Part shown: one piece after another, positions 12,019 through 53,920 of the stretch
How the letters are laid out: every line of letters starts with the position of its first letter
Position numbering within the stretch: position 1 is the stretch's first letter
NCBI GenBank assembly: GCA_023205875.1
Contig: CP060763.1
Span: 248,001-312,000 of the forward strand
Source of the DNA: Chloropicon primus
Lineage: Eukaryota
Direction of reading: 5' to 3'
Length of the DNA: 64,000 bases
Translations under genes and position numbers: made by a program
The notes under the pieces: model-generated
Seen by the model: the letters and a program-made list of their open reading frames with translations, nothing else
What the model was told of the DNA's origin: nothing
Databases searched by the model: none

Positions 12019-15000
12019 TCAGTGGAGGTTGTACGGCTGAAAGTGAGTCGCGAGCTGCTTTGGGTTGCATCTCTGACCGTTCTTCAGCGTGAACTTGAGG
12101 ATGTCCCTCGATGCCTCCTGGCGCGATGGCAGCTTCACCAGATTTGGGTGAAAAATGTGGGCCAGGAGCTCTATGCCATCCACGAGTCTCGGCCCAGGTC
12201 TCGAAAAGTAAGCGTGGTCGATGATGTAAACCTCCCCTTTGTATACAGCGGGGATGGACCACCAGCCAGGCATCGAAGCCAGTATGTTGACCTCAGAGAG
12301 AGTCTCCAGGGGGCTCGAGGAGCACGGCGTGAGGATCAGTATCTCCGGGGCGCATGCTCTCACCCTCTGCCAGTTAACCCTGTGGGCTAAAGCGCCTGGC
12401 TCCTGCAAAGGATCGAACCCCCCGGCGAGCGACTTCATTTCCGGGAGCCAGTGGCCGCCAAGCACCAGAGGTGAGAGCCCCTCGAAAGAGATCACCCTTG
12501 GCTTGTGCTCCGCCCTGGACACGACGTTCGCCACTTGCCTCAGCCTGTGTCTAAGGCTGGTGACCAGCTGGACCGCGGTGTCGTAAACACCGCAAGTCGT
12601 GCCAATTTCGATCAAGTGCTGGAAGACATCTGAGAGAATGTAAGCTTTGAGGTCCAAAACCGAGCACCCCACGGGCTGCTTCGTGGACTTGTCGATCAAA
12701 CCGGCTTGCGTCAAGGCCTCCGCAACGACGCTGGTGCTATCAGGACTGCAGGATTTGCACGTGCCCTGGGTGATGACTACTCCAGGCCTAGTGATGGAGA
12801 GCCACGTGACATCCAGGCGGAAAGGAATCTCTTTCCTGCCTCTCATCTCGGACAGCTTGGAATCGACTTGCTTTGCGCTCGGGGACGCGCCCAAGGATCT
12901 GCTCCCTCCGTGCTGCGAATGATCTCCTTCTCCGAATACCATGCTGTTGTTGTGGAATTTCAGCCTGCTCTGGCTCACGACATGCCGCCCCTGGTGAATG
13001 CTGATCGGGTAGTCGCACAGATCGGTTACCGCAACAAGCCTCTCCTCCAACCCGAGTGCACAGACCATCTCGGTTGCCTGGGGAGACAAGGAGCAAATGG
13101 CGAGCTCGCTTGGAATTGTGATGAATGAGACATCCGACCCCCCGGGCCTGTGCGACATGGAGCTCTTGAGGGTAAACTCCTCAATGTCCGCGTATGAGAT
13201 CGAACCCTTCTTTCCCTTGTACAAGCCCGACTTCCTCCTTCTTTCAGAAGATATGCTCTTTGTCTTCCCAGGCACGGCGTCGTTGAAGGAAAGCGCCTTG
13301 CTCACATTCCCCGCATCGCTGAAGTCCTGGTTTGGCAGGTTCGAACACGATATGCACCTCTGGTGAGACACGCCATTTGACTTTTGGGTGGCGTCATCCC
13401 CTGATGGAAGCGAGTGGCCCTCGTCCGAGCTGGAATTTTTGCTTCCCCCGCTGCTCGCGCTTTTGAGGTTGTTATAAATGGGGTTCATGTAGACCTCGCT
13501 CTCCGCCTTGAGGTGCATATCGCCCAGCTTCCTGACGATGGCGTTGCTCAGATCGTCCGCATCGACAAGGCTACACACACCAGCAAAGTGCGAGGCCAGA
13601 TTGGGATTGGACCTAAAATGCAAGTGCACAAAGGACGCCAGGACATTCTTGGCATTGTAGCCTTCCTTGGCCACTTTTTGCAAGTCCCCCGAGAGGCCCT
13701 CGAGTTTCACCTCGTAGATCTCTTTGTAGCTGCAGGGGGACAGAGCATCGCTGTCCTGCATCGCCAGGCTAAAGGCTTGGTTGAGGGACCCGCTGCCAAA
13801 CGACGGCTTCTTTGAATGATGGAACCCTCCTATCACTCTCTCCTCAACAATCTCGCTGAAGTGAAAGAACTGGCCCCGGATGACAGCCTCTGTCGGGAAA
13901 AGGCCATTCTTCCCGCGAGTCTTCACAGAAACGTAGCCTAAGTTGGCTTTCGGAGTCATCCTCGTTCTGAAGGGGAACACGCCCACCATGTTGTACTGCT
14001 GGGCCCCCTCCTCCCCCGCCGCTTCCAGGCTCTTGCTAAGGTACATCAGGCCGCCGCACTCGGCGTAGATGATACCCCCGCACTTGGCGAACGCGTGTAT
14101 CTCCTCCCGCATCCGGTGGTTCTCCTCCAACTTGGCAGCAAAGTTCTCCGGGTACCCTCCGCCGATATAGATCGCTTGAAGGTGCTTGGGCAACCCAGAA
14201 TCGTTCATGGGGGAGAAGAAAACCAACTCAGCCCCGTTCTCCTGCAGCATCAAAAGATTGTCGTGGTAGTAGAAGCAGAAAGCCTCGTCCCTCGCGACTC
14301 CGATCCTCGCGATGGGTTCTGGGAAAGACCTCTCGCTGCGCTCGCTTTCCAGGTCTCCAGGAATCCGTGCGCTCCTCGCAATGCCGAGCAGCTGCTCGGG
14401 GTCGAGGAGGTTCCTTGAGACCGACTCTAGACAGTCGAAATTCCTGCACTCGCTCGGGTACTTGAGCCCCAGGTGCCTCTCCGGGATCTCCATGTTCGCC
14501 CAAAACGGAATCGCCCCCAAGATGGCCGCGGATTTGCCTATCGCCTGCTCCAGCCACTGAACGTGCGGACTGCCCATGTAGAGCGCGCCAAAGTCCTCCC
14601 CCTCCGAAGCGCTTCCCACCTCAATGGAGTCGATTCCGCTCATGAACACCTTGTTCAAGACCGTCGCGGGCACATTCAAGTCCTTGTCGAAGAGCTGGAA
14701 GCCCCTCAGCTGAGCAGCCGCAGACCTTGACATGGCGGAGCAGTCCAGGACCAAGACGACCGGAGCTCCCAGCCACTTTGCTATCTCTGCCGTGCTCCCA
14801 AGCTCCGAGCTCCCGTCCCTGCCGTCGTACAACCCCATGCAGCCTTCGATCACCGCTACGATTGGCTCGTCCCCGGTTTCCCCCTCGTACTTGGTCCTTA
14901 TGGCGCAGTGAAACGCCTCGATGCACTCCTCCCTGCCGCCCAAGAGCCAGCCGTCCAAATTCACGCAGGGCCTGCTGGCCGCCCCGCCCGCGCAGGCGAA

Positions 15001-15486
15001 GGTCTCCAAGTGCTTCCCGTCAAGGAAGTCCGGCCCAACCTTGAAAGGCTGGATGAGGTACCCCGCCCTCCTCAGCGCCAGGGAGATGCACGAAGCCACC
15101 GTCGTCTTCCCCACTCCGCTGCTCGCCCCGGACACGACGAGGCACCCAGCAAGCTTCCCACTCGTGCTCGCGTGGGCCCCCGCCCCCGCCCTCTCCTCAA
15201 CCTTGGGCGAGGTGTCCTCCGCCCTGGGAGAAGCGTAGCTCCTGTCCGAGGAACCCTTGAGCTCGGCCAGGGCGACCTTGGCCTCCGCGAGCTCCGCCAC
15301 CAGGAAGTCATTCTCCCTGAGGAGCTCCGCCTTCTCCTCCACGAGTCGAAGCAGAGCCCTGGCTTCCGGCGAAGAGGGGGCCGAAGCGGAGGACGCGGAT
15401 GCCTCCGTCACCGGCGTCAACCTCACCTTGACATCATCCCCAACGCCTCCCTCCAACACCAGGTCACACCGCACCTCCTCGTCCAT
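12019..15486 (-). CDS. Fusion protein: N-terminal coiled coil, cobyrinate a,c-diamide synthase (CobB/CbiA; P-loop synthetase plus class I glutamine amidotransferase), Ser-rich linker, and BtuF-like cobalamin/Fe-siderophore-type binding domain
   Basis: CobB/CbiA motifs SGVGKTT, FKVGPDFLD, VIEGCMGLYDG, GSTAEIAK, ERHLGL, VARDEAFCFYY, GGGYPE, YAECGGLMYL and ASFVHLHF. C-terminal binding-domain motifs ICSLSPQATEMVCALG...CDYP, GHWLPEM..LAGG and YFSRPGPRLVDGIELLAHIFHP. One continuous 1155-aa ORF. Confidence 0.9.
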   Translation of the reverse strand: MDEEVRCDLVLEGGVGDDVKVRLTPVTEASASSASAPSSPEARALLRLVEEKAELLRENDFLVAELAEAKVALAELKGSSDRSYASPRAEDTSPKVEERAGAGAHASTSGKLAGCLVVSGASSGVGKTTVASCISLALRRAGYLIQPFKVGPDFLDGKHLETFACAGGAASRPCVNLDGWLLGGREECIEAFHCAIRTKYEGETGDEPIVAVIEGCMGLYDGRDGSSELGSTAEIAKWLGAPVVLVLDCSAMSRSAAAQLRGFQLFDKDLNVPATVLNKVFMSGIDSIEVGSASEGEDFGALYMGSPHVQWLEQAIGKSAAILGAIPFWANMEIPERHLGLKYPSECRNFDCLESVSRNLLDPEQLLGIARSARIPGDLESERSERSFPEPIARIGVARDEAFCFYYHDNLLMLQENGAELVFFSPMNDSGLPKHLQAIYIGGGYPENFAAKLEENHRMREEIHAFAKCGGIIYAECGGLMYLSKSLEAAGEEGAQQYNMVGVFPFRTRMTPKANLGYVSVKTRGKNGLFPTEAVIRGQFFHFSEIVEERVIGGFHHSKKPSFGSGSLNQAFSLAMQDSDALSPCSYKEIYEVKLEGLSGDLQKVAKEGYNAKNVLASFVHLHFRSNPNLASHFAGVCSLVDADDLSNAIVRKLGDMHLKAESEVYMNPIYNNLKSASSGGSKNSSSDEGHSLPSGDDATQKSNGVSHQRCISCSNLPNQDFSDAGNVSKALSFNDAVPGKTKSISSERRRKSGLYKGKKGSISYADIEEFTLKSSMSHRPGGSDVSFITIPSELAICSLSPQATEMVCALGLEERLVAVTDLCDYPISIHQGRHVVSQSRLKFHNNSMVFGEGDHSQHGGSRSLGASPSAKQVDSKLSEMRGRKEIPFRLDVTWLSITRPGVVITQGTCKSCSPDSTSVVAEALTQAGLIDKSTKQPVGCSVLDLKAYILSDVFQHLIEIGTTCGVYDTAVQLVTSLRHRLRQVANVVSRAEHKPRVISFEGLSPLVLGGHWLPEMKSLAGGFDPLQEPGALAHRVNWQRVRACAPEILILTPCSSSPLETLSEVNILASMPGWWSIPAVYKGEVYIIDHAYFSRPGPRLVDGIELLAHIFHPNLVKLPSRQEASRDILKFTLKNGQRCNPKQLATHFQPYNLH

Positions 15487-23528: not shown

Positions 23529-25202
23529 ATGAGTTTGCGCCCGAGCAGTCGCGCGGAACAGCGCCGCAAGAGCAGCAAGAAGACGATCGATGCGGATGAG
23601 GCGAGGAAGAAGCGTGAGGAGGTGAGCATCGAGATCAGGAAGAGCAAGAGGGAGGAGCAGATGCAGAAGAGGAGGCAGTTCCAGCAGTCGATGGCGGGGC
23701 ACGGGTCGGATGTCGCCCAGCCTGCTGCCGGGGGGTTCTCCCAGGACATGTCGAGCTCTTCGGCCCAGGGTGGTCAGAACCAGTCCACCATCAAGCAGAA
23801 GCTGGAGCAGCTACCTCAGATGGTGCAGGGGGTGTTCACGGACGTTCCCGAGCACCAGCTGGAGGCCACGGTGTGGTTCCGGAAACTCCTGAGCATCGAG
23901 AGGAATCCCCCGATCGCAGAGGTCATCCAGGCCGGCGTCGTGGGTAAGTTCGTGGAGTTCCTCCGGCGGAACGACATTCCTCAGCTCCAGTTCGAGGCGG
24001 CCTGGGCTCTCACGAACATTGCGAGTGGAACGAGCGAGCACACCAAGGTCGTGATTCAGAACGGGGCCGTGCCGATCTTCGTCCACCTCTTGGAGTCCCC
24101 CTCGGAGGACGTCAGGGAACAGGCCGTCTGGGCCCTGGGAAACATCGCGGGAGACTCTCCCAAGTGCAGGGACCTGGTTCTCAACTCGAGGGCCATGCAG
24201 CCCCTCCTGGCTCAGCTCAACCCGCAGGCCAAGGTCACCATGCTCAGGAACGCCACGTGGACTCTGTCGAACTACTGCAGGGGAAAGCCCCAGCCGGCCT
24301 TCGAGCAGGTCAAGCCCGCTCTCCCCGTGCTGGCCCAGCTGGTGAACTCGACCGACGAGGACGTCCTGACCGACGCCCTGTGGGCTCTGAGCTACCTCTC
24401 GGACGGAACCAACGACAGAATCCAGGCGGTCATCGAGGTTAACGTCTGCAAGAGGCTCGTTGAGCTCCTGGTCCACCCGACCGCCGCCGTGCTCATCCCG
24501 GCCCTGAGGACCGTGGGTAACATCGTGACCGGGAACGACATGCAGACCCAAATCATCATCAACTGCGGGGCCCTCCAGTGCTTGTTGCAGCTTCTCACCA
24601 ACTACAACAAGAAAAGCATCAAGAAGGAGTCTTGCTGGACGATCAGCAACATCACCGCGGGGAACAAGGACCAGATCCAGGCGGTCATCGACTCGGGCAT
24701 CATCCCCCCCCTGGTCAACTTGCTCTCGAAGGCTGAGTTCGACATCAAGAAGGAGGCTGCCTGGGCCATCAGCAACGCCACCAGCGGAGGATCGGCCCAG
24801 CAGATTAGGTACTTGGCCTCCTGCCAGTGCATTCCTCCCTTGTGCGAGTTGCTCACCTGCTCTGACCCAAGGATCGTGACTGTTGCCATGGAGGGCCTGG
24901 AAAACATTCTCAAGGTCGGCGAGGCTGACAAGGGGCTCGCCGGACCAAGCGCTTTTAACGCTTTCGCCAAGGAGATCGACGAATGCGAGGGCCTCGACAA
25001 GATCGAGAACTTGCAGAACCACCAAAACACGGACATCTACAACAAGGCCGTGAACATCATAGAGGTCTACTTCGGAGGCGACGACGAGACCGAGGACCAG
25101 AACCTCGCTCCCTCCGTCGATCCCAACGCTCAAATGTACACCTTTAGTCAGCAAGGCATGCCGGTTCCACAGGGTGGTTTCAACTTTGCCCCTCCCCAGT
25201 AG
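23529..25202 (+). CDS. IMPA: Importin subunit alpha
   Basis: IBB domain ([25 protein letters not shown]) and ARM repeats ([43 protein letters not shown]). Confidence 0.98.
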
Positions 25203-26487: not shown

Positions 26488-27606
26488 ATGTCTTCGGCGG
26501 AGCAGATCAACTTGAAGATCAAGGAGATTGAAGATGAGATGGCACGGACGCAGAAGAACAAGGCGACCAACCAGCACATGGGTCTCCTCAAGGCGAAGAT
26601 AGCCAAGCTGAAGAGGCAGCTTGTGGACGGACCTGCGGGTGGTGGTGGTGGTGGGAAGGGAGATGGGTTTGACGTGAACAAGAGTGGTGACGCGAGGATT
26701 GGTCTGGTCGGGTTTCCTTCGGTAGGAAAGTCGACGCTGCTTCAGGTGATGACGGGAACATTCTCCGAAGTCGCGGCGTACGAGTTTACGACTTTGACGT
26801 GCATCCCTGGAATCATTCGCCATCAGGGAGCCAAGCTGCAGATGTTGGACTTGCCGGGAATCATCGAAGGAGCGAAGGATGGCAAGGGTAGAGGTAGGCA
26901 GGTCATCGCGACTGCGAGGACGTGCAACGTGATTGTGATGGTGCTGGATGCTGCGAAGCCTTTGACTCACAAGGCGCTTATAGAGCACGAGCTGGAAGGG
27001 TTTGGTATGCGGTTGAACAAGTCTCCACCGGATATCACGTACAAGAAGAAGGACAAGGGAGGCGTGAACATCGTGGTGAACCGACCGCTGACCAAGATGA
27101 CGGAGGAGACGATGCGAGCGATCTGTAAGGAGTACCGCGTCATATCGGCAGACTTCATTATCAGGTGCGACCCGACGACGGACGAGTTCATCGACGTGCT
27201 GGAGGGCAACCGCGTGTACATCCCTTGCATTTACGTCATGAACAAGATCGACGCGCTGAGCCTCGAGGAGCTCGAGCTCCTGGACAAGGTGGAGCACTAC
27301 TGCCCGATAAGCGGAAACCTCAAGTGGAACCTGGAGGGCCTGCTGGAGAAGGTTTGGCAGTACTGCGACATGGTGAGGGTGTACACCAAGCCCAAGGGCC
27401 AGGACCCCGATTGGAACGACCCGGTCGTCCTTCCGAGGTCGAAGAGAACCGTGGAGGCCTTCTGCAACAGAATTCACAGGAACATGATCAAAAGCTTTAA
27501 GCACGCTATCGTGTGGGGAGTCAGCGCGAAGCATAGGCCCCAAACTGTCGGAAAGGACCACATCCTTGACGACGAGGACGTCGTCCAGATTGTGAAAAAG
27601 GTTTGA
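26488..27606 (+). CDS. DRG1: Developmentally regulated GTP-binding protein (OBG-type GTPase plus TGS domain)
   Basis: [40 protein letters not shown] and a C-terminal TGS domain ([30 protein letters not shown]). Confidence 0.96.
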
Positions 27607-27704: not shown

Positions 27705-30700
27705 TCACTCGATGCAGGCCCACAAGAATTGCCTGGCGCTCTTGGGAATGTCCAAGTTGAGCAAAAGCTGCCAGTACAAGCAGCTGTTGGACATGGCCAC
27801 CTTCTCCGGTTGCTCGTGCTTCAGCTTAGCCAGAGCCCGCTTCCCGTGCTCCTCCGCAATTGGATTGCTCAGCTGCCCCAATGCAGACAACACGACGTCG
27901 TCCACCGCAACTTTGCGCTGGGAGCGCTTTGCCAACGTCCTCTCCCTGTGAGAGTCGCACCAGCGCTTGATGTGCATCATCGTTTTTCGCCGAGGAGAGT
28001 TCAGGTAGAGGCCCAGATCTCGTGGCATGCAGAGCTTTGCGAACCCATTCTTCACCCTGCGATCGACCGGAAAGACCTGCCAGCTCGAGTGCTTCTCCCT
28101 CAGATGATCTTCCACCGCTTCGCTGTTGCTGGCTATGTTCATCGCCACAAAGGCTTGCCCCCTCAGCATGAAGTTGGTCGACACCATCGCTACGAATGCT
28201 ATCGCATCGATTCCGCCGACTTCCACCACTTGCCTTCCAGCGTCCTCGCTCCCCGATGCGAACAGTGCAAGGTACCACAGGAATGCCTGCCTGTTGACGA
28301 AGGGCTCGTCGTCGTCATCGATCCGCTCGATCAGCATCTCAAGGATCTGGTGTTTGATCATCCAGTCCAGCCCTAGTTTGGTGCAGCCCAAGGAGTGAAA
28401 GACGTTTTCTATCGAAAGCTCGGTCATCGCCCTTTGGGTTTCTTCCACCAAAGCATCGTCATCACTCGAGCCCTTGTCGAAGATGCTGCTCCTCAGCCAG
28501 CTCTGCAGCCTTGAGCTCTGCAAGTTGTGCACCGTGTCCATGAAGCACGTGGTCTTCTCCTCCAGCAGCTGGTCCGTGATGTGGTTCTCCAGCCAGCCGC
28601 TCTCGTTCAAGAACTTGAAGCCGTCATCGTGCAGCAGCAGGTGCTCAAGAAGGACGGGGTAGCCCAGAACCTTATCCCCAAGTTTCGTGACCCCTGCAGT
28701 GATCAGGTACTTTGTGTACCCGAGAGAACAGAATTGAGCGGCGAGCAAGGCAAAGTGGGCCTTCTTCTCCTCCGTTCCAGCGTCCAAGGAATTGACGAAT
28801 AACTTTGCGAACCAAGCCACCGATTTCCTTGAGGACTCGTCATTCACACTCTTTGGGTGCGGGAGGCTCACCACGTTCCTTTGCACGCAAAGGATCGCGA
28901 ATCTGAACAGCCTGCTGTCCGCCTTGATCGAAGAGGAGAGGGTATTGCCCACAAGCTTCTGGGGGAAGTCGTTGATCTGCAGGCTGAGGCGGGCAAAGAT
29001 TTGGCGGCAGAGCTCCAAATTCCCGCCATCTTGGACGACCTGCTCAAGCGACTGCGAGATTCCAAACCTGTACAGCATGTGGATCCCCCTCCTGGTGTCT
29101 GCGATCTGCAGAACCATGCGTATCAGGCCAAAGGCGTGAGTGTGCTTGACCAGGGCCGGATGAAAAATTCTCCCCTTCTTGACATCCTTGGGGCCTATCT
29201 CCAACTCCAACCCCTTCACGATCGTTTCGAAGAGGTTCACCTCGGGCAGCTGATCCAAGAAGCTCGACTTTCCCGAGAGGAAGTTCCTGCCCTCCTCCGT
29301 CTCGATCAGGAGCTTCATCAACTCCATGCCGCACTGAACGCTGACCCTTCCCTTGTAATTGTCGATCGGGACGTCAGGAAGCCTCTTTGCGTAAAACGCA
29401 AATAATCTCTTCAAGAGCTTGCTGCGCATGCAGAGCTTGATCCCTTCTTCTGGAATCCCCTTGCAGAGGTCGAGTATCAAAGCAAAGTACTCCCACTTCC
29501 AATTCTTCCAATACTTTGAGCTGTACTTGAGAACCCCTGAGTCTGCAAGGAGTTCTTGCAGCTTTGCGAGCTTCTCCTCCAGCTCCAGGCTGCCTTCCTG
29601 CGCCTCGCCGCGATTGAAATCCTCCACAGAGATGCCGTTGCTCGCTGCAGCACTGTTTCCTTTCACTGTGCTCGATCTCAAAGTCTGCATGATGGTCTTC
29701 CTCTCCTGGGAGGCCGTTGAGGCAGCATTGCCATTATTCGAGGCGTTGGACCTCAGAACGATGCTCTGCAGCTTCCTCAGGCTGTGGTCCTTAATCTCTG
29801 ACTGAGAGACCAAGTAGCTCATTTCCGGAAGCTCTTGCTTGTCGCCGATAATGATGCCGGCTTCCCCCGCGCCCAGAATGCCCTCCTTCTCCTTGATGTT
29901 GTGGCACCCTTGCATCAAGATGAGCTTCTCTCTCCTCAAGCAGAAGTGGGACATCTCCAAAAAGGCATCCAGCAGCAATGGTATGGACCTCTTCGGCTCG
30001 AACGTCTGCTTCATGGCATTCTTCAGGTGAAAGTGCAGACCAGCGTCGAAGAGGGCGTTGACGAGCACACCCCTGTGCACTCTCTTCGCTAACTCCACGA
30101 AATTCTTTTTCCTGGGCGTGGCCTCGTCCGACTCGCACGGCATGGAATCAGAAGACGGTGGTGACGAGCCGCTGCCGCCGCTGTTGTGGCCCGAATCCTC
30201 CCAAAAGAAAACTCCGTCGAAATCGAGCTTGATCCCCGTCTTCTCGATCCAGTATTCCGCGGCACTCTCCTCCATCGGCAGGCCGAGCAATCCCGAAAAC
30301 AGCAAGATGAAGACGCACCTCACGATGCTCACCTTGGTATCCGCAAAGGCTTGAACGAGGACCTCCAACACCGACTTCTCTGCCTTGGTGTGAGTTGTCA
30401 GCAGGAACACTCCCGACCAGGACTGGGCCATCCGAAACAAGCCCTGCATGCAGTTTGGCAGCAGCTTGAGCGTATGGATCTGATCCCAACCCAAGATGTC
30501 TTCCTCGTCCTTGGGGACCTCAGAGATGGCAAGGTCCGTGAACGGGCTCAAGATGGGCCCAAAGACCGCAGCTGTGTCCCAACCTAGGTTCTTCCTCGCC
30601 GTGACGTGGGCGAGCATCGACGAAAGCGCCTGCTGGGACGCCATCGCGATTGTTTCCCTCTGCACTGCCTCCATGTTCAAGGCGTAAGTGCCTTCGACGT

Positions 30701-31421
30701 CCAGGAAGCTCAGCGTGCACAAGGTCAAAAGGAGTGGCTTCAGGTGCTTCAGGGATGAGATCTGATTCGGGAAGTTCATTGCGATGTTTCGGAGAACCTC
30801 CAAGGCCTTGAGCAAGACCCTTGGGTTGCATGGAGGGGCCTCTGAGTCCTCTTCTTCCTCGGCCACGCTGCAAGCGTTCACCACAGAAGGCAGCACGAGC
30901 TGCCAGGCTCGAACCTCGTCCCTCCAAGGGCCTGCCGGCTTTTTCAGAGATTCTTGCTGGCACAGGGAAAGGACGAGCTGCAGAGCTTCCAATTGCTCCT
31001 CCGTGGAGCCCCCTCCGCCATCGAGCGCCCTCACCAGGTGCAGCACAAACCTCTGTCCTTTCACCGCTGCTTCCTCCTCCGACTCTCCCTCCGAAGTGAG
31101 GTCGAAGACGTCAACCAGAATCTTGCTCCTTGCGATGTACGTCATCGCCCTCCACCCCGCCGTCCTCAAGAAGGCATCCGCGTGGCTCGTCAGCTTGTAC
31201 AGCGCCGGTGGCAATGCTTGAAATCCCTTGCCCCCAGCAACATCATCTTTTGTGTCGACTCCCGATGCGAGAGCCATACTGAGCTCGGCCTCGAAGTCTG
31301 CGAGGGCGAATTGCATGCTCTGGACCCCCTGGACCCCCTGAACATCAAGCTCGCACGTCCCAATGAACTCCATGAGCCTCGCGCAGGCCTTCTCCACGCT
31401 CTCCCTCCAGTTCAAAACCAT
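27705..31421 (-). CDS. RICTOR: RICTOR/Avo3/Ste20/Pianissimo-like ARM-repeat protein (TORC2 subunit-like), divergent; a 5' extension is possible
   Basis: Collinear RICTOR-like blocks: RMAQSWSGVFLL (N domain); LADSGVLKYSSKYWKNWKWE...SKLLKRLFAFY...CGMELMKLLIETEEGRNFL...RIFHP (M domain); LLLHDDGFKFLNESGWL; AFLWYLALFAS...IAFVAMVSTNFMLRGQAFVAMNIAS (V domain); LGQLSNPIAEEHGKRALAKLK...PKSARQFL (C-terminal). First ATG at 31421; the frame is open to 31511. Confidence 0.75.
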   Translation of the reverse strand: MVLNWRESVEKACARLMEFIGTCELDVQGVQGVQSMQFALADFEAELSMALASGVDTKDDVAGGKGFQALPPALYKLTSHADAFLRTAGWRAMTYIARSKILVDVFDLTSEGESEEEAAVKGQRFVLHLVRALDGGGGSTEEQLEALQLVLSLCQQESLKKPAGPWRDEVRAWQLVLPSVVNACSVAEEEEDSEAPPCNPRVLLKALEVLRNIAMNFPNQISSLKHLKPLLLTLCTLSFLDVEGTYALNMEAVQRETIAMASQQALSSMLAHVTARKNLGWDTAAVFGPILSPFTDLAISEVPKDEEDILGWDQIHTLKLLPNCMQGLFRMAQSWSGVFLLTTHTKAEKSVLEVLVQAFADTKVSIVRCVFILLFSGLLGLPMEESAAEYWIEKTGIKLDFDGVFFWEDSGHNSGGSGSSPPSSDSMPCESDEATPRKKNFVELAKRVHRGVLVNALFDAGLHFHLKNAMKQTFEPKRSIPLLLDAFLEMSHFCLRREKLILMQGCHNIKEKEGILGAGEAGIIIGDKQELPEMSYLVSQSEIKDHSLRKLQSIVLRSNASNNGNAASTASQERKTIMQTLRSSTVKGNSAAASNGISVEDFNRGEAQEGSLELEEKLAKLQELLADSGVLKYSSKYWKNWKWEYFALILDLCKGIPEEGIKLCMRSKLLKRLFAFYAKRLPDVPIDNYKGRVSVQCGMELMKLLIETEEGRNFLSGKSSFLDQLPEVNLFETIVKGLELEIGPKDVKKGRIFHPALVKHTHAFGLIRMVLQIADTRRGIHMLYRFGISQSLEQVVQDGGNLELCRQIFARLSLQINDFPQKLVGNTLSSSIKADSRLFRFAILCVQRNVVSLPHPKSVNDESSRKSVAWFAKLFVNSLDAGTEEKKAHFALLAAQFCSLGYTKYLITAGVTKLGDKVLGYPVLLEHLLLHDDGFKFLNESGWLENHITDQLLEEKTTCFMDTVHNLQSSRLQSWLRSSIFDKGSSDDDALVEETQRAMTELSIENVFHSLGCTKLGLDWMIKHQILEMLIERIDDDDEPFVNRQAFLWYLALFASGSEDAGRQVVEVGGIDAIAFVAMVSTNFMLRGQAFVAMNIASNSEAVEDHLREKHSSWQVFPVDRRVKNGFAKLCMPRDLGLYLNSPRRKTMMHIKRWCDSHRERTLAKRSQRKVAVDDVVLSALGQLSNPIAEEHGKRALAKLKHEQPEKVAMSNSCLYWQLLLNLDIPKSARQFLWACIE

Positions 31422-31926
31422 GGTTGGTTGAGTATCCTCTATTCCCTTGGCCTTGGCCTTGCTGTGCGTGCCTCTGAAACTTCCCCTTTCCCTCGTGCCC
31501 GATGATCTCAATGCGTCTCCAGCTGAATCCAGAATGACACCACCATCGGCTTAGCCATCGTACCGACCGCTGTGCTCCCTTGCTCTCGTCGCTCTCTTCC
31601 TCCTTCCACTTCCAAGGTATCGCCTTGGCCTTGCCAACTCTGTTCTGCTGGGTTCTGCCCAAGACGATGGAGCAGATGACGAGGACGACGAGGACGAGGA
31701 CGACGACGAGGAGGAGGAGGCTTGGACAGATGTGTTCCCCTTCCCCCTTCCGAGAGGGTTATGCCTTGGCCTCTGCATTACCTGTCCAAGACGATGGGGC
31801 TTGGGCTTTGGGAGAGAGGAAGAGAGGAAGAGAAAGAGAAGGGATGATGATGATGATGATGATGAAGAAGATGATAGACAAGGGACTGAGACTGAAAGAA
31901 AAATAATTACAACAACAACAACGAGA

Positions 31927-32772
31927 TCAGGGAAGCATGACTTCCATGATGAAGGACTTAATTGTCGACACTGCCTCGTCCGTGTGGTCCTCCAAGGCGT
32001 GGCTCCCGCCTTCGATGACGATGGAGCGGGCCCTGGAACCCATGGCAGCCGCTAACCGCTTGGCCTGGCCCACCGCGTCGACTTCCGAGTGAGGGATGTA
32101 TTCGTCCGCCCCGGACTGGAGAACCAGGGTGGGCACGCCGTCCATGTGCCCCAAAAGATTCTTCAATTCGGTGTCCGTGAGGTCAGAAGAGAACGCCTCG
32201 TCGTCCCCTCCCTTCGCGGCCAGCGACAGGAACCGCCTCGCAGTAATGGGCGACCCGTCCTCCTGTGTGGAGAGCGGCATCAGGACCTCCTGGCCACCGC
32301 TTTGGGCCACGAGGTCCTCGGCCAACTTGATGTTCTTCTCCGTCTGCCCGTGCATCCCGAGGGACTCCCGGTCGCTGACGGGTGCCTGCAGCACCACGAA
32401 GTCGGGCTTCCCGCCCCTCAAGCAGAATCGGACAGCATCCTGGCAGCCCGTGCTGTGCCCAATGACCCCGTACCGTGACACGGGCGGGTCTGACTCGCGC
32501 TGGAGAGCGGACACGAGGTCCGCGAGCTCGCCCGCGTCCTCGTCCAGGGAACATACGCCATACCCCTGGTGACTCGAGGTCAGCAAAGTTTGGACGGTGG
32601 AGATCCCAAGGCCATCCAACTCCCTGCAAAGCGGATCCACGTAACTCGTGGCGAACAGACCGTCCGTCAATCCGCCGACCACGATGGCGACTTTGTCATT
32701 CTTGCCGTAGCGAAAGGCCACGTTCGCACTCTTCGGCCCGTACTTGAACAGTGTCCCATCAAGCGCACGCAT
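31927..32772 (-). CDS. Alpha/beta-hydrolase, UPF0613/DUF1749 family
   Basis: VGGLTDGL, nucleophile GHSTGCQD, LQAPVSDRE, PITARRFLSL, DEAFSSDL, SGADEYIP and GGSH; first ATG at 32772. Confidence 0.92.
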   Translation of the reverse strand: MRALDGTLFKYGPKSANVAFRYGKNDKVAIVVGGLTDGLFATSYVDPLCRELDGLGISTVQTLLTSSHQGYGVCSLDEDAGELADLVSALQRESDPPVSRYGVIGHSTGCQDAVRFCLRGGKPDFVVLQAPVSDRESLGMHGQTEKNIKLAEDLVAQSGGQEVLMPLSTQEDGSPITARRFLSLAAKGGDDEAFSSDLTDTELKNLLGHMDGVPTLVLQSGADEYIPHSEVDAVGQAKRLAAAMGSRARSIVIEGGSHALEDHTDEAVSTIKSFIMEVMLP

Positions 32773-40325: not shown

Positions 40326-43300
40326 TTACTTGTTCATGGCGCTAACAATGGCGTGGCAGATGCTCCTCATTTCTGAAGAGCACGTCGTTTCCCTCGCCGA
40401 CCTCGACATGACTTGCTCGAGATCCTGCAGAACATCTTTGCAGCACAATATCAAGTCGTCCTTGGTGAGCAGGCAAGCTGCCACTCGTGCGGCCGCGACT
40501 TGGACTTTGGACGGCAGGCCCTTGCTCATGATGGAGATGATCATGCCAATCACGTCAGGGGCGAACTCTGCTACGACTGGACCCGGCAGGTGGTACGAGG
40601 ATATGAACAAGACTTGCAGCAGAATCTCGTCCAGAGGGAGGCACCCCTCGTCCGCGTAAGCCGCGCTCGTCCTGAAGACCATGTGCTTCAAGATTCCAGG
40701 GATGAGATGAGAAGCGTAGGCGTTACCCATCTTTGGGGATTCCTTGAGCCGCGGGCAGATCGTAATGAGAGAGTTTGCCAGGAAGGAGTGGGTCAGCAAA
40801 TCAAAGGACTTCTCCAGCCCAAGGACCGCGCCGAGTTTGTTGCTGCCCTCCTTGTCCTTGTCACAGAGCAAGACGCTGGCAACCTCCGCGAACGAGAACG
40901 CCATCGGATCGATGGCGAGGTCTCGATTCTCGAGCTTGAGGACCAGAATGGAACCAAAGCAATCGAGGCACCCCAACTGCGTTTTCTTTGATTCGTTGGA
41001 TCCAGATCCATCGTCGCCGCTGACTGAGGAAACAGCCTTGAAGAGCGCAAGGACCTCCTTGGCAAGCAAGTCACACCTGGTGTGCAGGGTCATTGGGGCA
41101 GAGCCCTTGTGGTTTGCAAAGGAGCAGCAATACGCGTATAAGCATGCGCGCGACAAGGCAAAGTTTCGGTCGCGAATGCCCTCCCTGAGGAGAGCAAGCA
41201 TCAAAGAAAAGGAGACGTTTGGGTTCACCTTTCCGCAGAGCTCGGAGCAAAGCTTCCTCACCTGCAGATCTTCCGATGGATCTGTCATCCTCTTCAGAAG
41301 ATGCCCGAGCAGGTCGTCACACAGGTGCAAGTCGTCATCGGTCAGCAGCCTCGTCTCGAGTCTCATTGCAACGACTTCATCAAAGCAGAGTTTCGACACA
41401 ATCCTGAGCACGAGGAAAGGATGGAGACGGTCGAATACCGTGACAGCCTCCTGCTGACCAGCGCTATCCAGGCTCCTCAAGGCGGACGTTACGAAGTCCG
41501 AGACCAATGCACTCTCGCTGCTCAGTTGAGGTGAAAGACCGCTGAGCACCTGTATCCAAAGTTGATTTGATTTGTCTGCAGCTGAAGTCTTGAGAACTAC
41601 GCGAAGGAGGACTCCCCAAAACTTCGAAGTCTTGTCCTTCTCACCCAAATCTCTCATTGTTTTTGCTGCTTTCTTAGGATCCGTCTTTTCCACAAACTTC
41701 TGAAAAGCGCTTTCGACCGAAGGGTGATCCTCCGGCCCGATCTTCGCGAGAAACTCCAACAGCATCCCTGTGTCCAGCGGCTGCTCTTCGTCCACCGTCT
41801 CTGAAACGTGGAGGAGACTTTCAATCACATTTCTGGCGGGGAGCTTGCTGAGCACCAGCCTCACTTCGTCCTCCACTGCTTTTGACTTCAAACCGACGAT
41901 GCGGTCAGAGATAGCAGCCAGCTTGTCTTCAAACACATTCCCGGCGGTCTGGATGCCCATCCCAAGAATTGCATCCAGGGCGGCGAGACCACCCCGCAGG
42001 CTTCCGGGATCACTCCCTTCGCAAAGCAGTCCCGTCAACTCGTTCACCGCCAGGACGGAGCACATTGGATTGGTGAGCAAACCTCTGAGCAGCTCTGTGG
42101 ACACATTGGAGCAGCTTGTGCAAGATTTGAGGACGGACGTCACAAAATCTTTCGCGGCCGCACTGGAAACCTCCTCGCCGCTCCCGTAGCCTTCCACCTC
42201 TACCATGGCAAACACGGATATCCTGGAAGCCAGATCGCACAGTGGGAGGCCCAAGGAGGACGACGACGAGGTGATTCCCACCATGGCGTCCAAGACACCC
42301 TCAAGGTAGCGAACCCCCGCTTCTGTGCTGGGCTCGTACCTGCCCAACCCGATGACAATGCCCGCGGAGACTAGTTTGCGGAATATCGCCTCGTGGATGA
42401 GAAGCAGGTCGTTGCCATCTTTCCCGGGGGCGGCGGACGCGTATTTCAGTGCAGAAGTTGCCTTCTTGAGCGTGGCTCCGTCGCCAGCGTCGTACTTTTC
42501 CGTGATCGAGCGGTACGTTTTCAGATCAAAAAGCAAGAGAGGCGACCACTCTACCCAGCAACAGGCGTGAATGACCTTGGCGTTGTCCTCGTCCTTGTTT
42601 GCGAACCGGAAAGATTCCATCTTCGAAACGCGCTTCTTCATCACCCCAAGGGACTGGATCATGATTCGAGAATTGTGGATGACGCCCCCGTTGCCTGCCA
42701 GCGCCATTGCCCACTCTTCGTGCCTCTCCAGGAGTTGGACTAGCAAAGGCAGCTTCTCCCATAACCACTGGGCGGAGGACAGAAACGTCTCCGAGTTGCT
42801 GGAAGGCACCGGAACGCTTGAGTGCAAACGATCCAGCGAAAGGATCTCAATCACCACAAGCAGCACGCAGTCCGATGCTATCGATGTCAGCTTTGTTGGC
42901 ACGCCCTGCGCCTCCCCGACCCCGACCCCCGCGCACACCTGAAGCAGAGAAGGGAACGTCCCCGACAGCGCCCGCAGTCTCTCGTCCTTCTCCTCCGTCG
43001 TCCAATTGCTCTTGGTCGACTCCCTCACCAGAGTGGAGAGTATCAGAACGCACGCGTACTTCACCTCTTGGCTTCCCTTGGACAACGCCAAGGCGAGGCA
43101 AGAAGAAAACTTGCAGAGCTCCGCCTCGAAAAAGTTGGACACCAGCCTGAGCAGCAGGCCCCTGCGCTCCAGATCCTCGCACGTGCACCACTCGTCCAGC
43201 AGTGGCATCACTATCGCCAGAAGATCCTCCAGAGTCGCCTCGATTCGCGTGAAGTGTTCCCACAGGGACGAGAGTGCCTCGTGCTCCACCTTGTTCCTCT

Positions 43301-43487
43301 TGTGCTCCACGAAGGCATAGTGGTTCATACTCCGCAACGCACCGGCTTTCCTCCTGCACAACTTCTTCAACCTCGCATTGTCTAATCCAAGGATCAGAGC
43401 AAGAGACACGCCGACGTGAACCCCTCCGCCGCCTGCCACCTCCTCGCTCGTGGATGCCATGGCCAAAGGCATCTTGGAGGCTGCCAT
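40326..43487 (-). CDS. Large ARM/HEAT-repeat protein of unknown function
   Basis: 1053-aa Leu-rich helical ORF. VFDRLHPFLVLRI and QVRKLCSELCGKVNP recall a conserved uncharacterised plant ARM-repeat family. Confidence 0.7.
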   Translation of the reverse strand: MAASKMPLAMASTSEEVAGGGGVHVGVSLALILGLDNARLKKLCRRKAGALRSMNHYAFVEHKRNKVEHEALSSLWEHFTRIEATLEDLLAIVMPLLDEWCTCEDLERRGLLLRLVSNFFEAELCKFSSCLALALSKGSQEVKYACVLILSTLVRESTKSNWTTEEKDERLRALSGTFPSLLQVCAGVGVGEAQGVPTKLTSIASDCVLLVVIEILSLDRLHSSVPVPSSNSETFLSSAQWLWEKLPLLVQLLERHEEWAMALAGNGGVIHNSRIMIQSLGVMKKRVSKMESFRFANKDEDNAKVIHACCWVEWSPLLLFDLKTYRSITEKYDAGDGATLKKATSALKYASAAPGKDGNDLLLIHEAIFRKLVSAGIVIGLGRYEPSTEAGVRYLEGVLDAMVGITSSSSSLGLPLCDLASRISVFAMVEVEGYGSGEEVSSAAAKDFVTSVLKSCTSCSNVSTELLRGLLTNPMCSVLAVNELTGLLCEGSDPGSLRGGLAALDAILGMGIQTAGNVFEDKLAAISDRIVGLKSKAVEDEVRLVLSKLPARNVIESLLHVSETVDEEQPLDTGMLLEFLAKIGPEDHPSVESAFQKFVEKTDPKKAAKTMRDLGEKDKTSKFWGVLLRVVLKTSAADKSNQLWIQVLSGLSPQLSSESALVSDFVTSALRSLDSAGQQEAVTVFDRLHPFLVLRIVSKLCFDEVVAMRLETRLLTDDDLHLCDDLLGHLLKRMTDPSEDLQVRKLCSELCGKVNPNVSFSLMLALLREGIRDRNFALSRACLYAYCCSFANHKGSAPMTLHTRCDLLAKEVLALFKAVSSVSGDDGSGSNESKKTQLGCLDCFGSILVLKLENRDLAIDPMAFSFAEVASVLLCDKDKEGSNKLGAVLGLEKSFDLLTHSFLANSLITICPRLKESPKMGNAYASHLIPGILKHMVFRTSAAYADEGCLPLDEILLQVLFISSYHLPGPVVAEFAPDVIGMIISIMSKGLPSKVQVAAARVAACLLTKDDLILCCKDVLQDLEQVMSRSARETTCSSEMRSICHAIVSAMNK

Positions 43488-47432: not shown

Positions 47433-50400
47433 ATGGACCTCCTTTCGCAATGGCTTCAGGATGAGGTGGGGATGAAGATTGTTGGGACATTGGAGAGCCG
47501 CTTCGCATCGGGGTACGCGTTCGGTGAGCTCCTGAGCAAGTTCAACTTGCAGAACGACTTTGTTCACTTCGAGGACAGCGATTCTCCGGATGCCATGATC
47601 AACAACTTCACCAGGCTTCAGTTGACTTTCTCCAAGTTGAAGATAAAGTTGGACTCAAGCTCTGCGAGTGCAATCATGAGCGGAGAGAAGGGAGTCGCTG
47701 CTAGGTTTGTTTACGACATAAAGGTGGCTATGGACACGTTCAGGAAGGAGTTGTCCGCGGGGAACAACACGTACTCGCACTCGAACTTCGGAGTGGAAAC
47801 GAAGCTATCGTTGGCTTTGTTGGAAACCAAAGCGAACTCGGATCGGGTGAATTATACGAACAAGATGCATGAGATCTTCGAGCACAACGTGAGGAGAAGG
47901 GTTCCTGATCCTGGGACGATTAGGGAGGCGGTTCACTTGCACAAGTTCAGCGCCGAGCGAGCCAGGCAGGAGAGGAAAGTTGCTGAGACGAAGCATCAGA
48001 CGCAGAGGGAGCTGGACTTCAAGAGGAAGACGTTCCGGGAGGACCTGTTGAGCAAGATGTCCCTGAGGAAGCAGAGGGGCAAGGATCTGGAGGACTCGAT
48101 CATACAGTCGCACACGGCGAGCATGACTCACAGGAGGCAGCTCGAGAAGCAGGAGCTCGCCATCGAGAGCGCCCTGTCCCGGAAGAGGGAGGGGTTCAAG
48201 CTCCTCGCGAACAAGACCGCGGGGGTCGAGGCCAGAGACGGGATCGATGACTTCGAGAACACCCTGAAGAAGCTCGGGATCGGCGAACAGAAGCAGGACA
48301 GCGCGCTCGAGCCCCTGAACACCTCGGCCGAGGAGCACATCGTCAAGATCAAGAGCATGGTCCCCGACAAGTCCTTCTGGAACACGACCAAGGACGATTA
48401 CATGAACACGGTGAAGGCGAGGGTGTCCGAGGAGTCTGCGGCCCGCAAGGAGAGGGAGAAGAAGAGAAAGAAGCTCTTGCTGGAGAGGCAGCAGGCCCAC
48501 GTGGAGGCGGCCCAAGTCAGGCGTAACACGATGGTCATCTCGGCCCTGACGGGCAAGAGCAACGAGGAGCAAAGGGTTCAGGACCGACTCTCTCAGTTAG
48601 ACAAGGAGAACCAGAGCATGAGGGACAACAGGCGGAACCTCGACATGCAGCACGAGGAGAGGGATAGCCAGGACCTGGACCTCACCTTGAAGAGAGAGGC
48701 AGAGATGCAGAAGAAGCGCCTGGACCAGTACAGGAGGGAGACCGAGGAGGGTGAGATCAGGTGGACCTCTCTCAAGGAGAAGGCCCTCAAGGAAAAGAAA
48801 GTGAGGAGAGAGACGTTCGCGAGGAGCATCACGAACCAGCTGGTGGAGCTTGCCGAGAAGATGATCAAGTACCGCGAGATCACGAACGCCAAGGTGCCGA
48901 AGAGCGAGTACATGAACTGGGTGGCGATGATCACGTCTGGCATGGCGTCTCAAAAGTCCGATTCAACGTCGAGCGAGAAGGACAAGGAGCCCGATGAGAT
49001 CAAGAGAGCCTTGGACATGTCTTCCGTGCAAAATTATTTGAACAACAACGGAGAGTGGGACGTGGGCATCACTTGCGAGTGCAACGAGGAGCTCGTCAAG
49101 ATCATCTCAGAGCTTTCCAAGGAAGAGGACTCGCCCCTCGAGCACACTTTCGGCCACATGGACTCCGACTGTGATCTCAAGGTTGCCGTGGTGGGAGGCT
49201 TTGCTTCGGGAAAGTCGACGCTCGCCGCAAAGCTTGCGACCGCGTTCAACCTCCATGTCATCGATGTGGACAAGCTCGTTGACAACGCCGTGACTGTGTG
49301 CTCTGCTCCCCCGGCGGAGGACGGGGAGGGCTCCCCCCAGGACGAGAAGCTGGTCCAGCTGAGCAGAGAGATCAAGAGCATCCTGAACCAGGGCAAGGAC
49401 ATTGAGGACGAGTACATTGTGAAGCTGATCCTTTTGGAGATCTCCAAGATCAAAGAGCAGGCCCGAGAAAGCGAGAAGGGGCTGCAGGGCTTCGTTCTTG
49501 ATGGATTCCCCAGCTCCAAGGACCAAGCAGCGCTCCTGGAGAAGTACATGACGGGACTTGACCTGGAGAAGGTCAAGGCGAGGAAAGAAAATGCTTCCAA
49601 GATTGCCCCCCCTCTGGAGAGCAAGACCGCTAACATTGACGGCACCCTTGTCTCAGGCCTTGACGCTGTGTTCCGCTTGAACATGGATGACGAGAGCCTC
49701 GCACTCAAGAGAGTTCTCGGCAAGAGGGTGGATCCAGAGACCCAGCAAGTGTACCACTTGGAGTTCAACCCGCCGCCAATTGACGACGCCGGCCTCGTGG
49801 AGCGCCTGGAGGAGGTGCAAAACTCCATTACCGACCTCAGCATCATCGAAGCCAGGCTGAACCACTTCGCGGAGGGCAAGGGCGCCCTTGACGGCTGGCT
49901 GAGGATGTTCTCGAACTTGCTGCACCCCATCGAGGCGGCCGAGGGCATCGAAAGCATCCAAACTACCGCTGGAGAGACCTTGTCCAACATCTTCGAAGAG
50001 AAGAAGAGGGCAAAGGAAGCAATTGTGGCCCTTGAGTCGGCAACGAACGCCGAGGAGGCTGCAAAGGCTGCGATGGAGGCAGCGATCCAAGCCAGAAGCG
50101 CATGTGAGCAGGCGGCACAGCAGCTGCTCTTGGCGAAGAAGGCGGAAATCGAAGCAAGCAGCATGCTGGAAGCCAACCCCGAGGAAACGGATGCCAAGGA
50201 CGTGCTGAGCCAGAAGAGCGCGGAGTTGTGCCAGACGCACTTTGAGAGCGTCCAAAAGGCCGCCCAGGAGTCTCAAAAGTTCGCAGAAGAGGCGCAGAAG
50301 GCCGCGGAAAGCGCCAAGGAGTCCGCGGATACTTGCAAGAGCAAGACAGAAAACATCTCGCTGTCCACTTCGGCTAGGATAGAGGCCCAGCAGTCGGCCA

Positions 50401-52442: not shown

Positions 52443-52489
52443 AAAAAACAATTTACTTTTCCACGTGAAAGCGTTCCTACTACTCGCTC

Positions 52490-53920
52490 TTACTCTTCTG
52501 TCGCAGGGGCTTCCTCCACTGGCTCCTCCACTGCCTCCGGGGCCTCCGTCACCGCCTTCTCGAACGCAACGTCTTGGATGTACTCTTCTCGTTCTAGGTG
52601 GCACAACACGTCGTACATGAACTCGACGTATTCGCTGTACGTGACCATTCCGTTCTCGTCCTCGTCCATGGCCGAAAGAAGCGCGTGGATCTCCTTTGGC
52701 CTCAGCTGAAGCTCTCCCGTGCCCAAAGTCATCAAAGCCTCGAAGCACTCGTTCCTATCCAAGGTGCCGGTGTTGTCCTCATCGGCCTCCAGGAAGACTG
52801 CAGTGAGCAGGTCCAGGACCTTGTCCTTGTCGACTCCTCGCATGAGCTGGGACCCGGAAGCCTTGGAGACGTTGACCACGGCCTTGGTGCGCTTGTATTG
52901 TGATTCGTAGTCTATGAATGTGAAGATAAGCTGCGCTGCTTTGCGCGAGAACATAGCGTAGTCGACCAAGCCTCCCTTGTCGGGCTGACTCTCGGAGAAG
53001 ACCACGGAGATCTGCAAGTCTGTCAAACCAAGGAGCTCGTAAGAGTACTCCTTGAGGAAGGTCTTGATGTCACTCTGGTGCAGCAAGCCGATCTGGTCCG
53101 TGTCCGCCGCCTCGAACATGAGAAGCAAGTCCTTCTCGAGCTCGTTGGCTGGGAACTTCCTCTGGTCCTCGAGAATCTCATTCGTGAAGTGCCAGACCAT
53201 GATCTCGTAGCACTTTGTCGCAAACTCCTGCCAAGATATCTTGCCGTCCATGTCCGTGTCCGCCTCGGCCATGAGAAGGTTCACCTCCCTCTTCGTGAGC
53301 CCAAGGCCCGCGTACCTCAAGCAGTGCTTGAACTCCTTTCTGTCCAAGTACCCGTTCTTGTCCTGGTCAGCGGCAAGGAAAGACTTCCCGAGCTGCTCCA
53401 AAAAGTCCTCCTGGTACATGCCCTTGATGAGAATGGCCTCTGCCATCTCCGCAGCATCGGCCTGCTCCTTCTTCATCTCGTTCTCCAACTCGTCCTTGGC
53501 CTTGAATGCCTGGAGCACCTGCACCATGAAAGGCACAAACTCGTTGTACTCGATGCACCCGTCATCGTTCTCGTCGCATTCGATCATGATCTTCCTGTAG
53601 TCTCTCTTGCTCAAGTTCAAGTCAGTGCTCCTCAAGACGTCCTGGAACTCTTTCCTGTCCAGGTAGCCGTTCCCATCCTTATCCGCTGACAAGAATATCT
53701 CCGTGATGAAGGACTCCATCTCCTCGGGACCCATGTCGAGAAGGCTCGTCTGCTGGGCCTTCTGCTCCTCGGTCTGAATGTCCAGCAAGTTCTTGAAGTA
53801 AGCCGCACCGAATTCGTAGATATTCTCAGGCTGCTCCCTCAAAATCTCCCTCGTCAGCTCCTTGAGCAAAGGAGGGAACGCCTCCGGGATGGTATAAGGC
53901 TTCTGGTAACGAGAAGACAT
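52490..53920 (-). CDS. RSP7: Radial spoke protein 7-like (RIIa dimerisation/docking domain plus multiple EF-hands)
   Basis: N-terminal YQKPYTIPEAFPPLLKELTREILREQPENIYEFGAAYF (RIIa); EF-hands DKDGNGYLD, DENDDGCIEYNE, DQDKNGYLD, DTDMDGKISWQE, DEDNTGTLD and DEDENGMVTYSE. Confidence 0.85.
   Translation of the reverse strand: MSSRYQKPYTIPEAFPPLLKELTREILREQPENIYEFGAAYFKNLLDIQTEEQKAQQTSLLDMGPEEMESFITEIFLSADKDGNGYLDRKEFQDVLRSTDLNLSKRDYRKIMIECDENDDGCIEYNEFVPFMVQVLQAFKAKDELENEMKKEQADAAEMAEAILIKGMYQEDFLEQLGKSFLAADQDKNGYLDRKEFKHCLRYAGLGLTKREVNLLMAEADTDMDGKISWQEFATKCYEIMVWHFTNEILEDQRKFPANELEKDLLLMFEAADTDQIGLLHQSDIKTFLKEYSYELLGLTDLQISVVFSESQPDKGGLVDYAMFSRKAAQLIFTFIDYESQYKRTKAVVNVSKASGSQLMRGVDKDKVLDLLTAVFLEADEDNTGTLDRNECFEALMTLGTGELQLRPKEIHALLSAMDEDENGMVTYSEYVEFMYDVLCHLEREEYIQDVAFEKAVTEAPEAVEEPVEEAPATEE

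Follow-up and report, generated by a model that had tools for sequence, protein, structure and literature searches.

In human TOR complex 2 (TORC2), the armadillo domain of the RICTOR subunit makes contacts with mTOR and the A-site residues of RICTOR are K541, R572, R575 and R576 (PMC7673708), while the C-terminal domain covers the FKBP-rapamycin-binding (FRB) site of TOR (PMC7673708, PMC9440446). The complex is described as an early loss, dated to the root of the plant supergroup (PMC5745459, PMC9664231), and a 2025 survey reports it as entirely absent in Archaeplastida, with green-algal matches put aside as contaminants or improper annotation (PMC12467227). A further study scores RICTOR as absent in 13 of 14 chlorophytes and as not assessable in one (10.64898/2026.09.26.754375); its main text names neither Chloropicon nor Cymbomonas, and its supplements may bear on the question. 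We analysed a window of 64,000 nucleotides from Chloropicon primus (contig CP060763.1, positions 248,001 to 312,000), a very small marine green alga placed by NCBI taxonomy in Chlorophyta, Chloropicophyceae, and found that it encodes a divergent RICTOR homolog. With a probability of about 0.68, the gene is an intact, native, fast-evolving RICTOR that is shared with Cymbomonas, likely goes back to the common ancestor of green algae and likely serves as a TORC2-type scaffold on TOR and LST8.

The gene is an unbroken open reading frame (ORF) of 1,238 codons with no internal stop (Table 1), found exactly where the original prediction, made from the letters alone, had read an intact protein of ~1240 residues; all of the motifs quoted there were located as described. 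Six residues set the window protein (P0001) apart from C. primus QDZ23331.1 (A3770_10p58490; 99.5% identity), which is labelled hypothetical at NCBI and carries the automatic UniRef name 'Rapamycin-insensitive companion of mTOR middle domain-containing protein'. In the supplement of the C. primus genome paper the RICTOR gene is assigned to chromosome 10 and carries a heterozygous site of frequency 0.48 (PMC6731263). The start codon is backed by the relatives P0003, P0005/P0037 and P0041, which share it. Another ATG lies 119 codons upstream, in frame, and is followed by 75 codons and a single stop (31551-31778, reverse strand); since the relatives begin at the downstream ATG, this stretch may be an upstream ORF or chance.

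Pfam searches of the window protein at E-values up to 10 returned two families only, RICTOR_M (28 bits against a cut-off of 27) and RICTOR_V (E = 3e-4, under the cut-off), in the order found in RICTOR. Among four Chloropicon-type proteins, RICTOR_M and RICTOR_V were each detected in 4/4, RICTOR_N in 1/4 (E = 0.0034) and RasGEF_N_2 in 0/4. A five-row Chloropicon profile searched against 1.84 billion representative proteins yielded 38 matches, six of them Chloropicon-type and 32 distant. The Pfam scan took in 35 of the 38 and found RICTOR families in 30 of the 32 distant matches, all four families in 23, and nothing in two short fragments. An eight-row green-group profile matched human RICTOR (E = 9e-27) over a single colinear stretch, approximately human residues 97-995, and yeast TSC11/Avo3 (E = 3e-21), both ahead of designed armadillo repeats. 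In the reverse direction, a profile of 24 non-green RICTORs scored the window protein at 200.8 bits in one stretch (residues 257-1237), a value that is not fully independent because most of the 24 rows were chosen by the Chloropicon profile. Controls reached at most 1.3 bits for the 90 of 200 shuffles reported, -3.3 for the reversed protein, and at most 4.9 bits for importin alpha, a TORTIFOLIA-like protein and a 1,053-residue ORF of the window; a fourth control, RMC1, gave no reported row. An independent PANTHER RICTOR score for C. primus is 193.2 (PMC12467227, Table S1). Judged by sequence, the protein is a member of the RICTOR family, with homology running colinearly across the armadillo and HEAT-like domains, and the RICTOR identity first proposed is borne out by the Pfam, profile and structure searches alike.

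The gene is native to Chloropicon. A metagenome contig (L001) carries a RICTOR copy 67% identical to that of the window and keeps the order and orientation of the hydrolase, RICTOR, DRG-type GTPase and importin alpha genes. The ratio of nonsynonymous to synonymous substitution (dN/dS) between the two RICTOR copies is 0.13, as compared to 0.04, 0.06 and 0.27 for the three neighbours, with synonymous sites near saturation; the gene is thus under purifying selection. GC content at third codon positions (GC3; 0.765) and codon-usage correlation (0.947) lie within the range of 13 other measured genes. In each of two runs from one sample (X1 and X2), one contig, at the depth of the neighbours, runs through RICTOR and the whole or the greater part of the DRG gene; this lends little weight, because these contigs may be close to the window's own source. 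At least four more Chloropicon-type variants exist, at 51-70% identity. The original prediction had argued against contamination from codon style and from GWD1, CPP1 and PurH as neighbours; Pfam confirms these three genes, and the synteny in a second species extends the argument. In one 90% cluster (P0005, P0024, P0037), a Chloropicon-type RICTOR appears to be split into 890 and 345 residues in several assemblies and is intact at 1,224 residues in one; a frameshifted allele or a small intron may account for the split, or it may be erroneous. In two presumed RNA runs of one study, contigs cover both neighbours and none covers the RICTOR gene, a result that weighs neither way.

The main structural model, built from a 41-row alignment that included RICTORs, had a predicted local distance difference test (pLDDT) score of 80.1 and a predicted template-modelling (pTM) score of 0.80. 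Foldseek ranked human RICTOR first (template-modelling (TM) score 0.61/0.63, E = 8e-19), the next protein reaching TM 0.23 and E = 8e-7. Since RICTORs stood in that alignment, a second search used a model from the five Chloropicon-type rows alone; this model is poor (pLDDT 49.9) and served solely as an independent fold check, and at this low confidence RICTOR again ranked first (E = 8e-13 against 3e-6 for the next). The comparison with human RICTOR that had been suggested with the original prediction thus gave the same first rank with both models, and the three-part RICTOR fold is present in these predictions. In the linker between the two main domains, pLDDT falls below 50 over protein residues 516-609 (451-544 in the numbering of the model), and residues 501-600 are 61% identical to the L001 copy. 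K636, K668, K671 and R672 align with the human nucleotide-pocket residues K541, R572, R575 and R576, K541 being placed by its spacing from W546/W548. These basic residues are conserved from yeast to human and all four occur in the window protein; K636 is not in every green relative. The block that had been called the M-domain (residues 627-711) precedes Pfam RICTOR_M and is instead the start of the HEAT-like domain with its nucleotide pocket. The hairpin is likely the equivalent of the 'PR anchor', going by the description of the human protein (PMC7673708), and the window protein has no counterpart of the long, disordered region in which human RICTOR is phosphorylated. The predicted C-terminal block, whose sequence is conserved across RICTORs, likely corresponds to the human domain lying over the FRB site of TOR; for this block and for the hairpin the equivalence is inferred.

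Table 1. Features of the RICTOR gene and its neighbours in the 64,000-nucleotide window
Feature	Window positions	Strand	Protein residues	Basis
RICTOR ORF	27705-31421	-	1-1238	
N-terminal armadillo-type domain (bounds approximate)	29913..31226	-	~66-503	Human profile match from ~residue 97; model
Loose linker, poorly conserved	29595..29912	-	~504-609	Low confidence and low conservation
HEAT-like domain	28086..29594	-	~610-1112	Pfam, profile match, model
Pfam RICTOR_M, within HEAT-like domain	28923-29177	-	749-833	Pfam
Pfam RICTOR_V, within HEAT-like domain	28095-28286	-	1046-1109	Pfam
Basic A-site residues K636, K668, K671, R672	29406..29516	-	636-672	Alignment to human RICTOR
3-residue deletion site, green-algal group	29382..29396	-		Alignment
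Two-stranded hairpin	28023..28082	-	1114-1133	Strands in both models
C-terminal four-helix block	27711..27899	-	1175-1237	Helices in model
SWSGVFLL	30399-30422	-		Quoted motif located
DSGVL	29529-29543	-		Quoted motif located
KNWKWE	29490-29507	-		Quoted motif located
KRLFAFY	29391-29411	-		Quoted motif located
LMKLLIETEEG	29289-29321	-		Quoted motif located
GFKFLNESGWL	28590-28622	-		Quoted motif located
LWYLA	28266-28280	-		Quoted motif located
LRGQAFVAMNIAS	28128-28166	-		Quoted motif located
LSNPI	27858-27872	-		Quoted motif located
ARQFL	27723-27737	-		Quoted motif located
Importin alpha neighbour	23529..25202	+		Pfam; syntenic in L001
DRG-type GTPase neighbour	26488..27606	+		Pfam; syntenic in L001
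DUF1749 hydrolase neighbour	31927..32772	-		Pfam; syntenic in L001

Outside Chloropicon the closest match, at 114 bits, is Cymbomonas tetramitiformis KAK3265428.1; one further protein follows at 98 bits, and then RICTORs outside the green group at 62 bits or less. A branch with 100/100 support joins five Chloropicon-type rows, Cymbomonas and four further rows, the last not necessarily green algae, both under LG+G4 (34 rows) and under a mixture model (21 of the 34 rows, after removal of 13 that were near-duplicates or reference rows beyond need). A 3-residue deletion is found in 9/9 green-group rows that cover the site and in 0/24 other RICTORs; it also occurs in P0058 and P0141. Long branches meet in this part of the trees, but the deletion, an independent character, agrees with them, and the RICTORs of Chloropicon and Cymbomonas very probably share a single green origin. 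Grouping of Chloropicon RICTOR with the fungi was rejected (approximately unbiased test, p = 6e-55; the fungal-constraint trees and those with single lineages held 15 to 17 rows). The suggestion that loss within Viridiplantae was patchy rather than ancestral gains support from this group and its deletion. Environmental RICTORs with the green deletion are P0043, P0076, P0085-P0089, P0141, P0084 and P0066, and the P0043-type clusters lie mostly on contigs of ~5 kb. Word-based searches, started from alignment A6 and from the Cymbomonas protein, returned no further named green alga; such searches find shared words only and are no evidence of absence.

For C. primus, the supplements of PMC12467227 and PMC6731263 have entries for TOR, LST8 and RAPTOR, and a TOR-bound complex containing Chloropicon RICTOR is a probable reading of the combined evidence. 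By its locus tag the TOR gene (A3770_10p60410, outside the window) is on the same chromosome as RICTOR, probably by chance. The literature is split over SIN1/Avo1 in C. primus, with a RIP3/SIN1 match in PMC8245530 and no score in PMC12467227. Supplement 3 of PMC8245530, a table of only 17 predicted phagotrophs out of 90, records PiaA/RICTOR in 7/17 datasets and RIP3/SIN1 in 4/17, all within the seven; the seven belong to Chloropicon, Cymbomonas, Pterosperma, Dolichomastix and Crustomastix. C. primus is scored for both proteins. The Cymbomonas genome has a SIN1 score of 109.3 bits (PMC12467227, Table S1). By analogy with human and yeast TORC2, the armadillo domain would dock on TOR, the C-terminal helix block would cover its rapamycin site, and a divergent SIN1 would insert between the armadillo and HEAT-like domains and recruit an AGC-family kinase. 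Activation of this kinase would serve plasma-membrane and actin control, as TORC2 does in the fluid uptake of Dictyostelium (10.1101/417923).

Several observations weigh against a TORC2 scaffold of green-algal descent. SIN1 is the weak link: PMC12467227 gives no SIN1 score for either Chloropicon species, the RIP3 match in PMC8245530 is a 0/1 entry for which a generic domain could be responsible, PiaA is scored there without RIP3 in C. laureae, Crustomastix and Pterosperma, and human RICTOR needs SIN1 to join mTOR (PMC7673708). No inner branch is longer than the Chloropicon stem, at 1.6 to 2.5 changes per column in two trees, and this fits a relaxed or changed function. The place of the green group varies between trees in which long branches meet: it falls next to Rhodelphis with support of 83/96 and 83/90, unstarred, and with single lineages its position is open or elsewhere. 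Pfam RICTOR_N and RasGEF_N_2 went undetected on the window protein taken singly; the regions concerned align by profile, and the Cymbomonas relative passes all four families. PDB searches at E up to 10 with the window protein alone or with a four-row profile reached neither human nor yeast RICTOR and returned only generic armadillo proteins (designed armadillo repeats for the single sequence) or unrelated ones, and this weak single-sequence signal may be why simple checks can dismiss Chloropicon RICTOR. The Foldseek result of the main model is partly circular, because RICTORs were in its alignment.

The missing SIN1 scores, the long stem and the fact that the TOR-contacting N-terminal domain has the weakest Pfam signal would also suit a true RICTOR relic whose role has changed and which acts independently of SIN1 or of TOR, with no canonical TORC2 in Chloropicon. 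We consider this unlikely: the structured parts are all in order, including the C-terminal block and the A-site residues, armadillo residues 301-400 are 84% identical to the L001 copy, a RIP3/SIN1 match is recorded for C. primus (PMC8245530), and many RICTOR-bearing lineages have no detectable SIN1 (PMC12467227). The choice between TORC2 and a repurposed RICTOR, left open in the original prediction, leans toward TORC2.

An early loss of TORC2 in the plant supergroup, followed by one ancient transfer of RICTOR from another eukaryote into a prey-eating early green alga, is quite unlikely, and it is simpler to suppose vertical descent from the ancestor of eukaryotes. The unfixed sister of the green group would allow such a transfer, as would the lack of a PiaA score in Mesostigma, in Nephroselmis and in six datasets of Pyramimonas (PMC8245530). 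Streptophyte copies are likewise missing among the named matches of the profile and word-based searches. Against it, the green group falls within none of the starred reference groups, nor within fungi or animals, and SIN1-type matches accompany RICTOR, so that a second transfer would be needed. All four Pfam families occur in the RICTOR of Rhodelphis marinus (P0053), which two trees show as the nearest row. Rhodelphis is placed beside red algae, and if that affinity holds its RICTOR also speaks, as a second argument, against a loss at the root of the plant supergroup. We left the sister position of Rhodelphis to the green group unclaimed, as it fails with single lineages. That the gene is a contaminant, as the methods of PMC12467227 treat green-algal matches, or a generic armadillo/HEAT protein mis-scored as RICTOR, as the designed repeats among the single-sequence PDB matches might suggest, has next to no probability, being contradicted by synteny, dN/dS, codon use and contig bridging on the one hand and, on the other, by the fold match to RICTOR, window controls below 5 bits and the lack of any generic repeat protein by Pfam among the 32 distant matches (0/32).

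A native RICTOR in Chloropicon implies that early green algae likely kept TORC2 and that their descendants likely lost it several times; separate losses would have occurred in Mamiellales, core chlorophytes and land plants. The stronger proposal is that a working TORC2 of TOR, LST8, RICTOR and divergent SIN1 persists in at least three early-branching green-algal classes as one component of an ancestral toolkit for feeding and actin, ancestral in green plants and lost repeatedly, and we regard the odds for it as even. If true, Chloropicon, a small sequenced photosynthetic cell, could serve to test which role TORC2 had in green-lineage cells and what took over from it in plants. The pattern may fit a rule that TORC2 persists in particle-feeding cells. 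We did not take phagotrophy as the specific reason for retention, the evidence being mixed and partly circular, because PiaA itself is among the features of the predictor that rates C. primus, at 0.707, as a likely phagotroph. The RICTOR score of C. roscoffensis is 186 bits (PMC12467227), yet its phagotrophy score is 0.002-0.109 (PMC8245530), and PiaA is scored negative in Pyramimonas and Nephroselmis, both of them validated bacterivores (PMC8245530).

Traces of this gene are on record. In Table S1 of PMC12467227 the RICTOR scores of C. primus, C. roscoffensis and Cymbomonas (342.2 for the last) are medium to high on the survey's own scale and all are called absent, and the 48 chlorophyte rows in part 6 of its supplement all lack a score. 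The supplement of PMC8245530 (2021) holds the RICTOR- and SIN1-type matches of C. primus, on which its main text is silent, and PMC12301720 has one supplement row reading 'RICTOR_M domain-containing protein', also passed over in its main text. The main text of PMC5741210 makes no mention of a green-algal RICTOR. We found no published claim of a green-algal RICTOR, or of Chloropicon paired with RICTOR, in a search that left most subscription journals outside. What is already known is an automatic RICTOR_M database label and a signal in two supplements, with no main-text claim found; homology, native status and a shared green origin, in a lineage where RICTOR is stated to be absent, are established here. 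The native Chloropicon and Cymbomonas group contradicts a single early loss of TORC2, turns matches once discarded as contamination into real data, and provides culturable green algae in which TORC2 function is testable.

Elsewhere in the window, a CobB/CbiA-type cobyrinate diamide synthase is fused to a periplasmic-binding-protein-like domain (12019-15486, reverse strand), a B12 pathway-type enzyme in a green alga. For the 1,053-residue ORF (40326-43487, reverse strand), Pfam returned nothing at E = 0.001. In an alga described as non-motile, positions 47433-53920 encode a flagellar central-pair protein of the CPC1/SPEF2 type and a RIIa/EF-hand protein; flagellar genes in C. primus are remarked on in PMC8245530.

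Compared with human RICTOR (PDB 6ZWM chain E, 7PE8 chain E), the window protein has the same order of armadillo, HEAT-like and C-terminal helical parts, with TM 0.61/0.63 at 15% identity in the structural alignment, and the basic A-site residues. It differs in lacking the 550-residue phosphorylation region, in a 3-residue deletion after the A-site helix and in a linker of ~100 residues between the two main domains. With yeast TSC11/Avo3 (PDB 9RSQ chain C; profile E = 3e-21) and fungal RICTORs it has the M and V domains in common, and it is without the N-terminal HR1 region that several fungal-type matches carry. Cymbomonas KAK3265428.1 (hypothetical protein CYMTET_25887, partial) has the same deletion and lies on the same side of the 100/100 branch; the two are 22% identical, and the Cymbomonas copy is far less divergent from other RICTORs. 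The hidden Markov model of Dictyostelium PiaA is scored present in C. primus (PMC8245530). In Dictyostelium, PiaA has been tested for function, in the activation of an Akt-type kinase and in macropinosome size (10.1101/417923).

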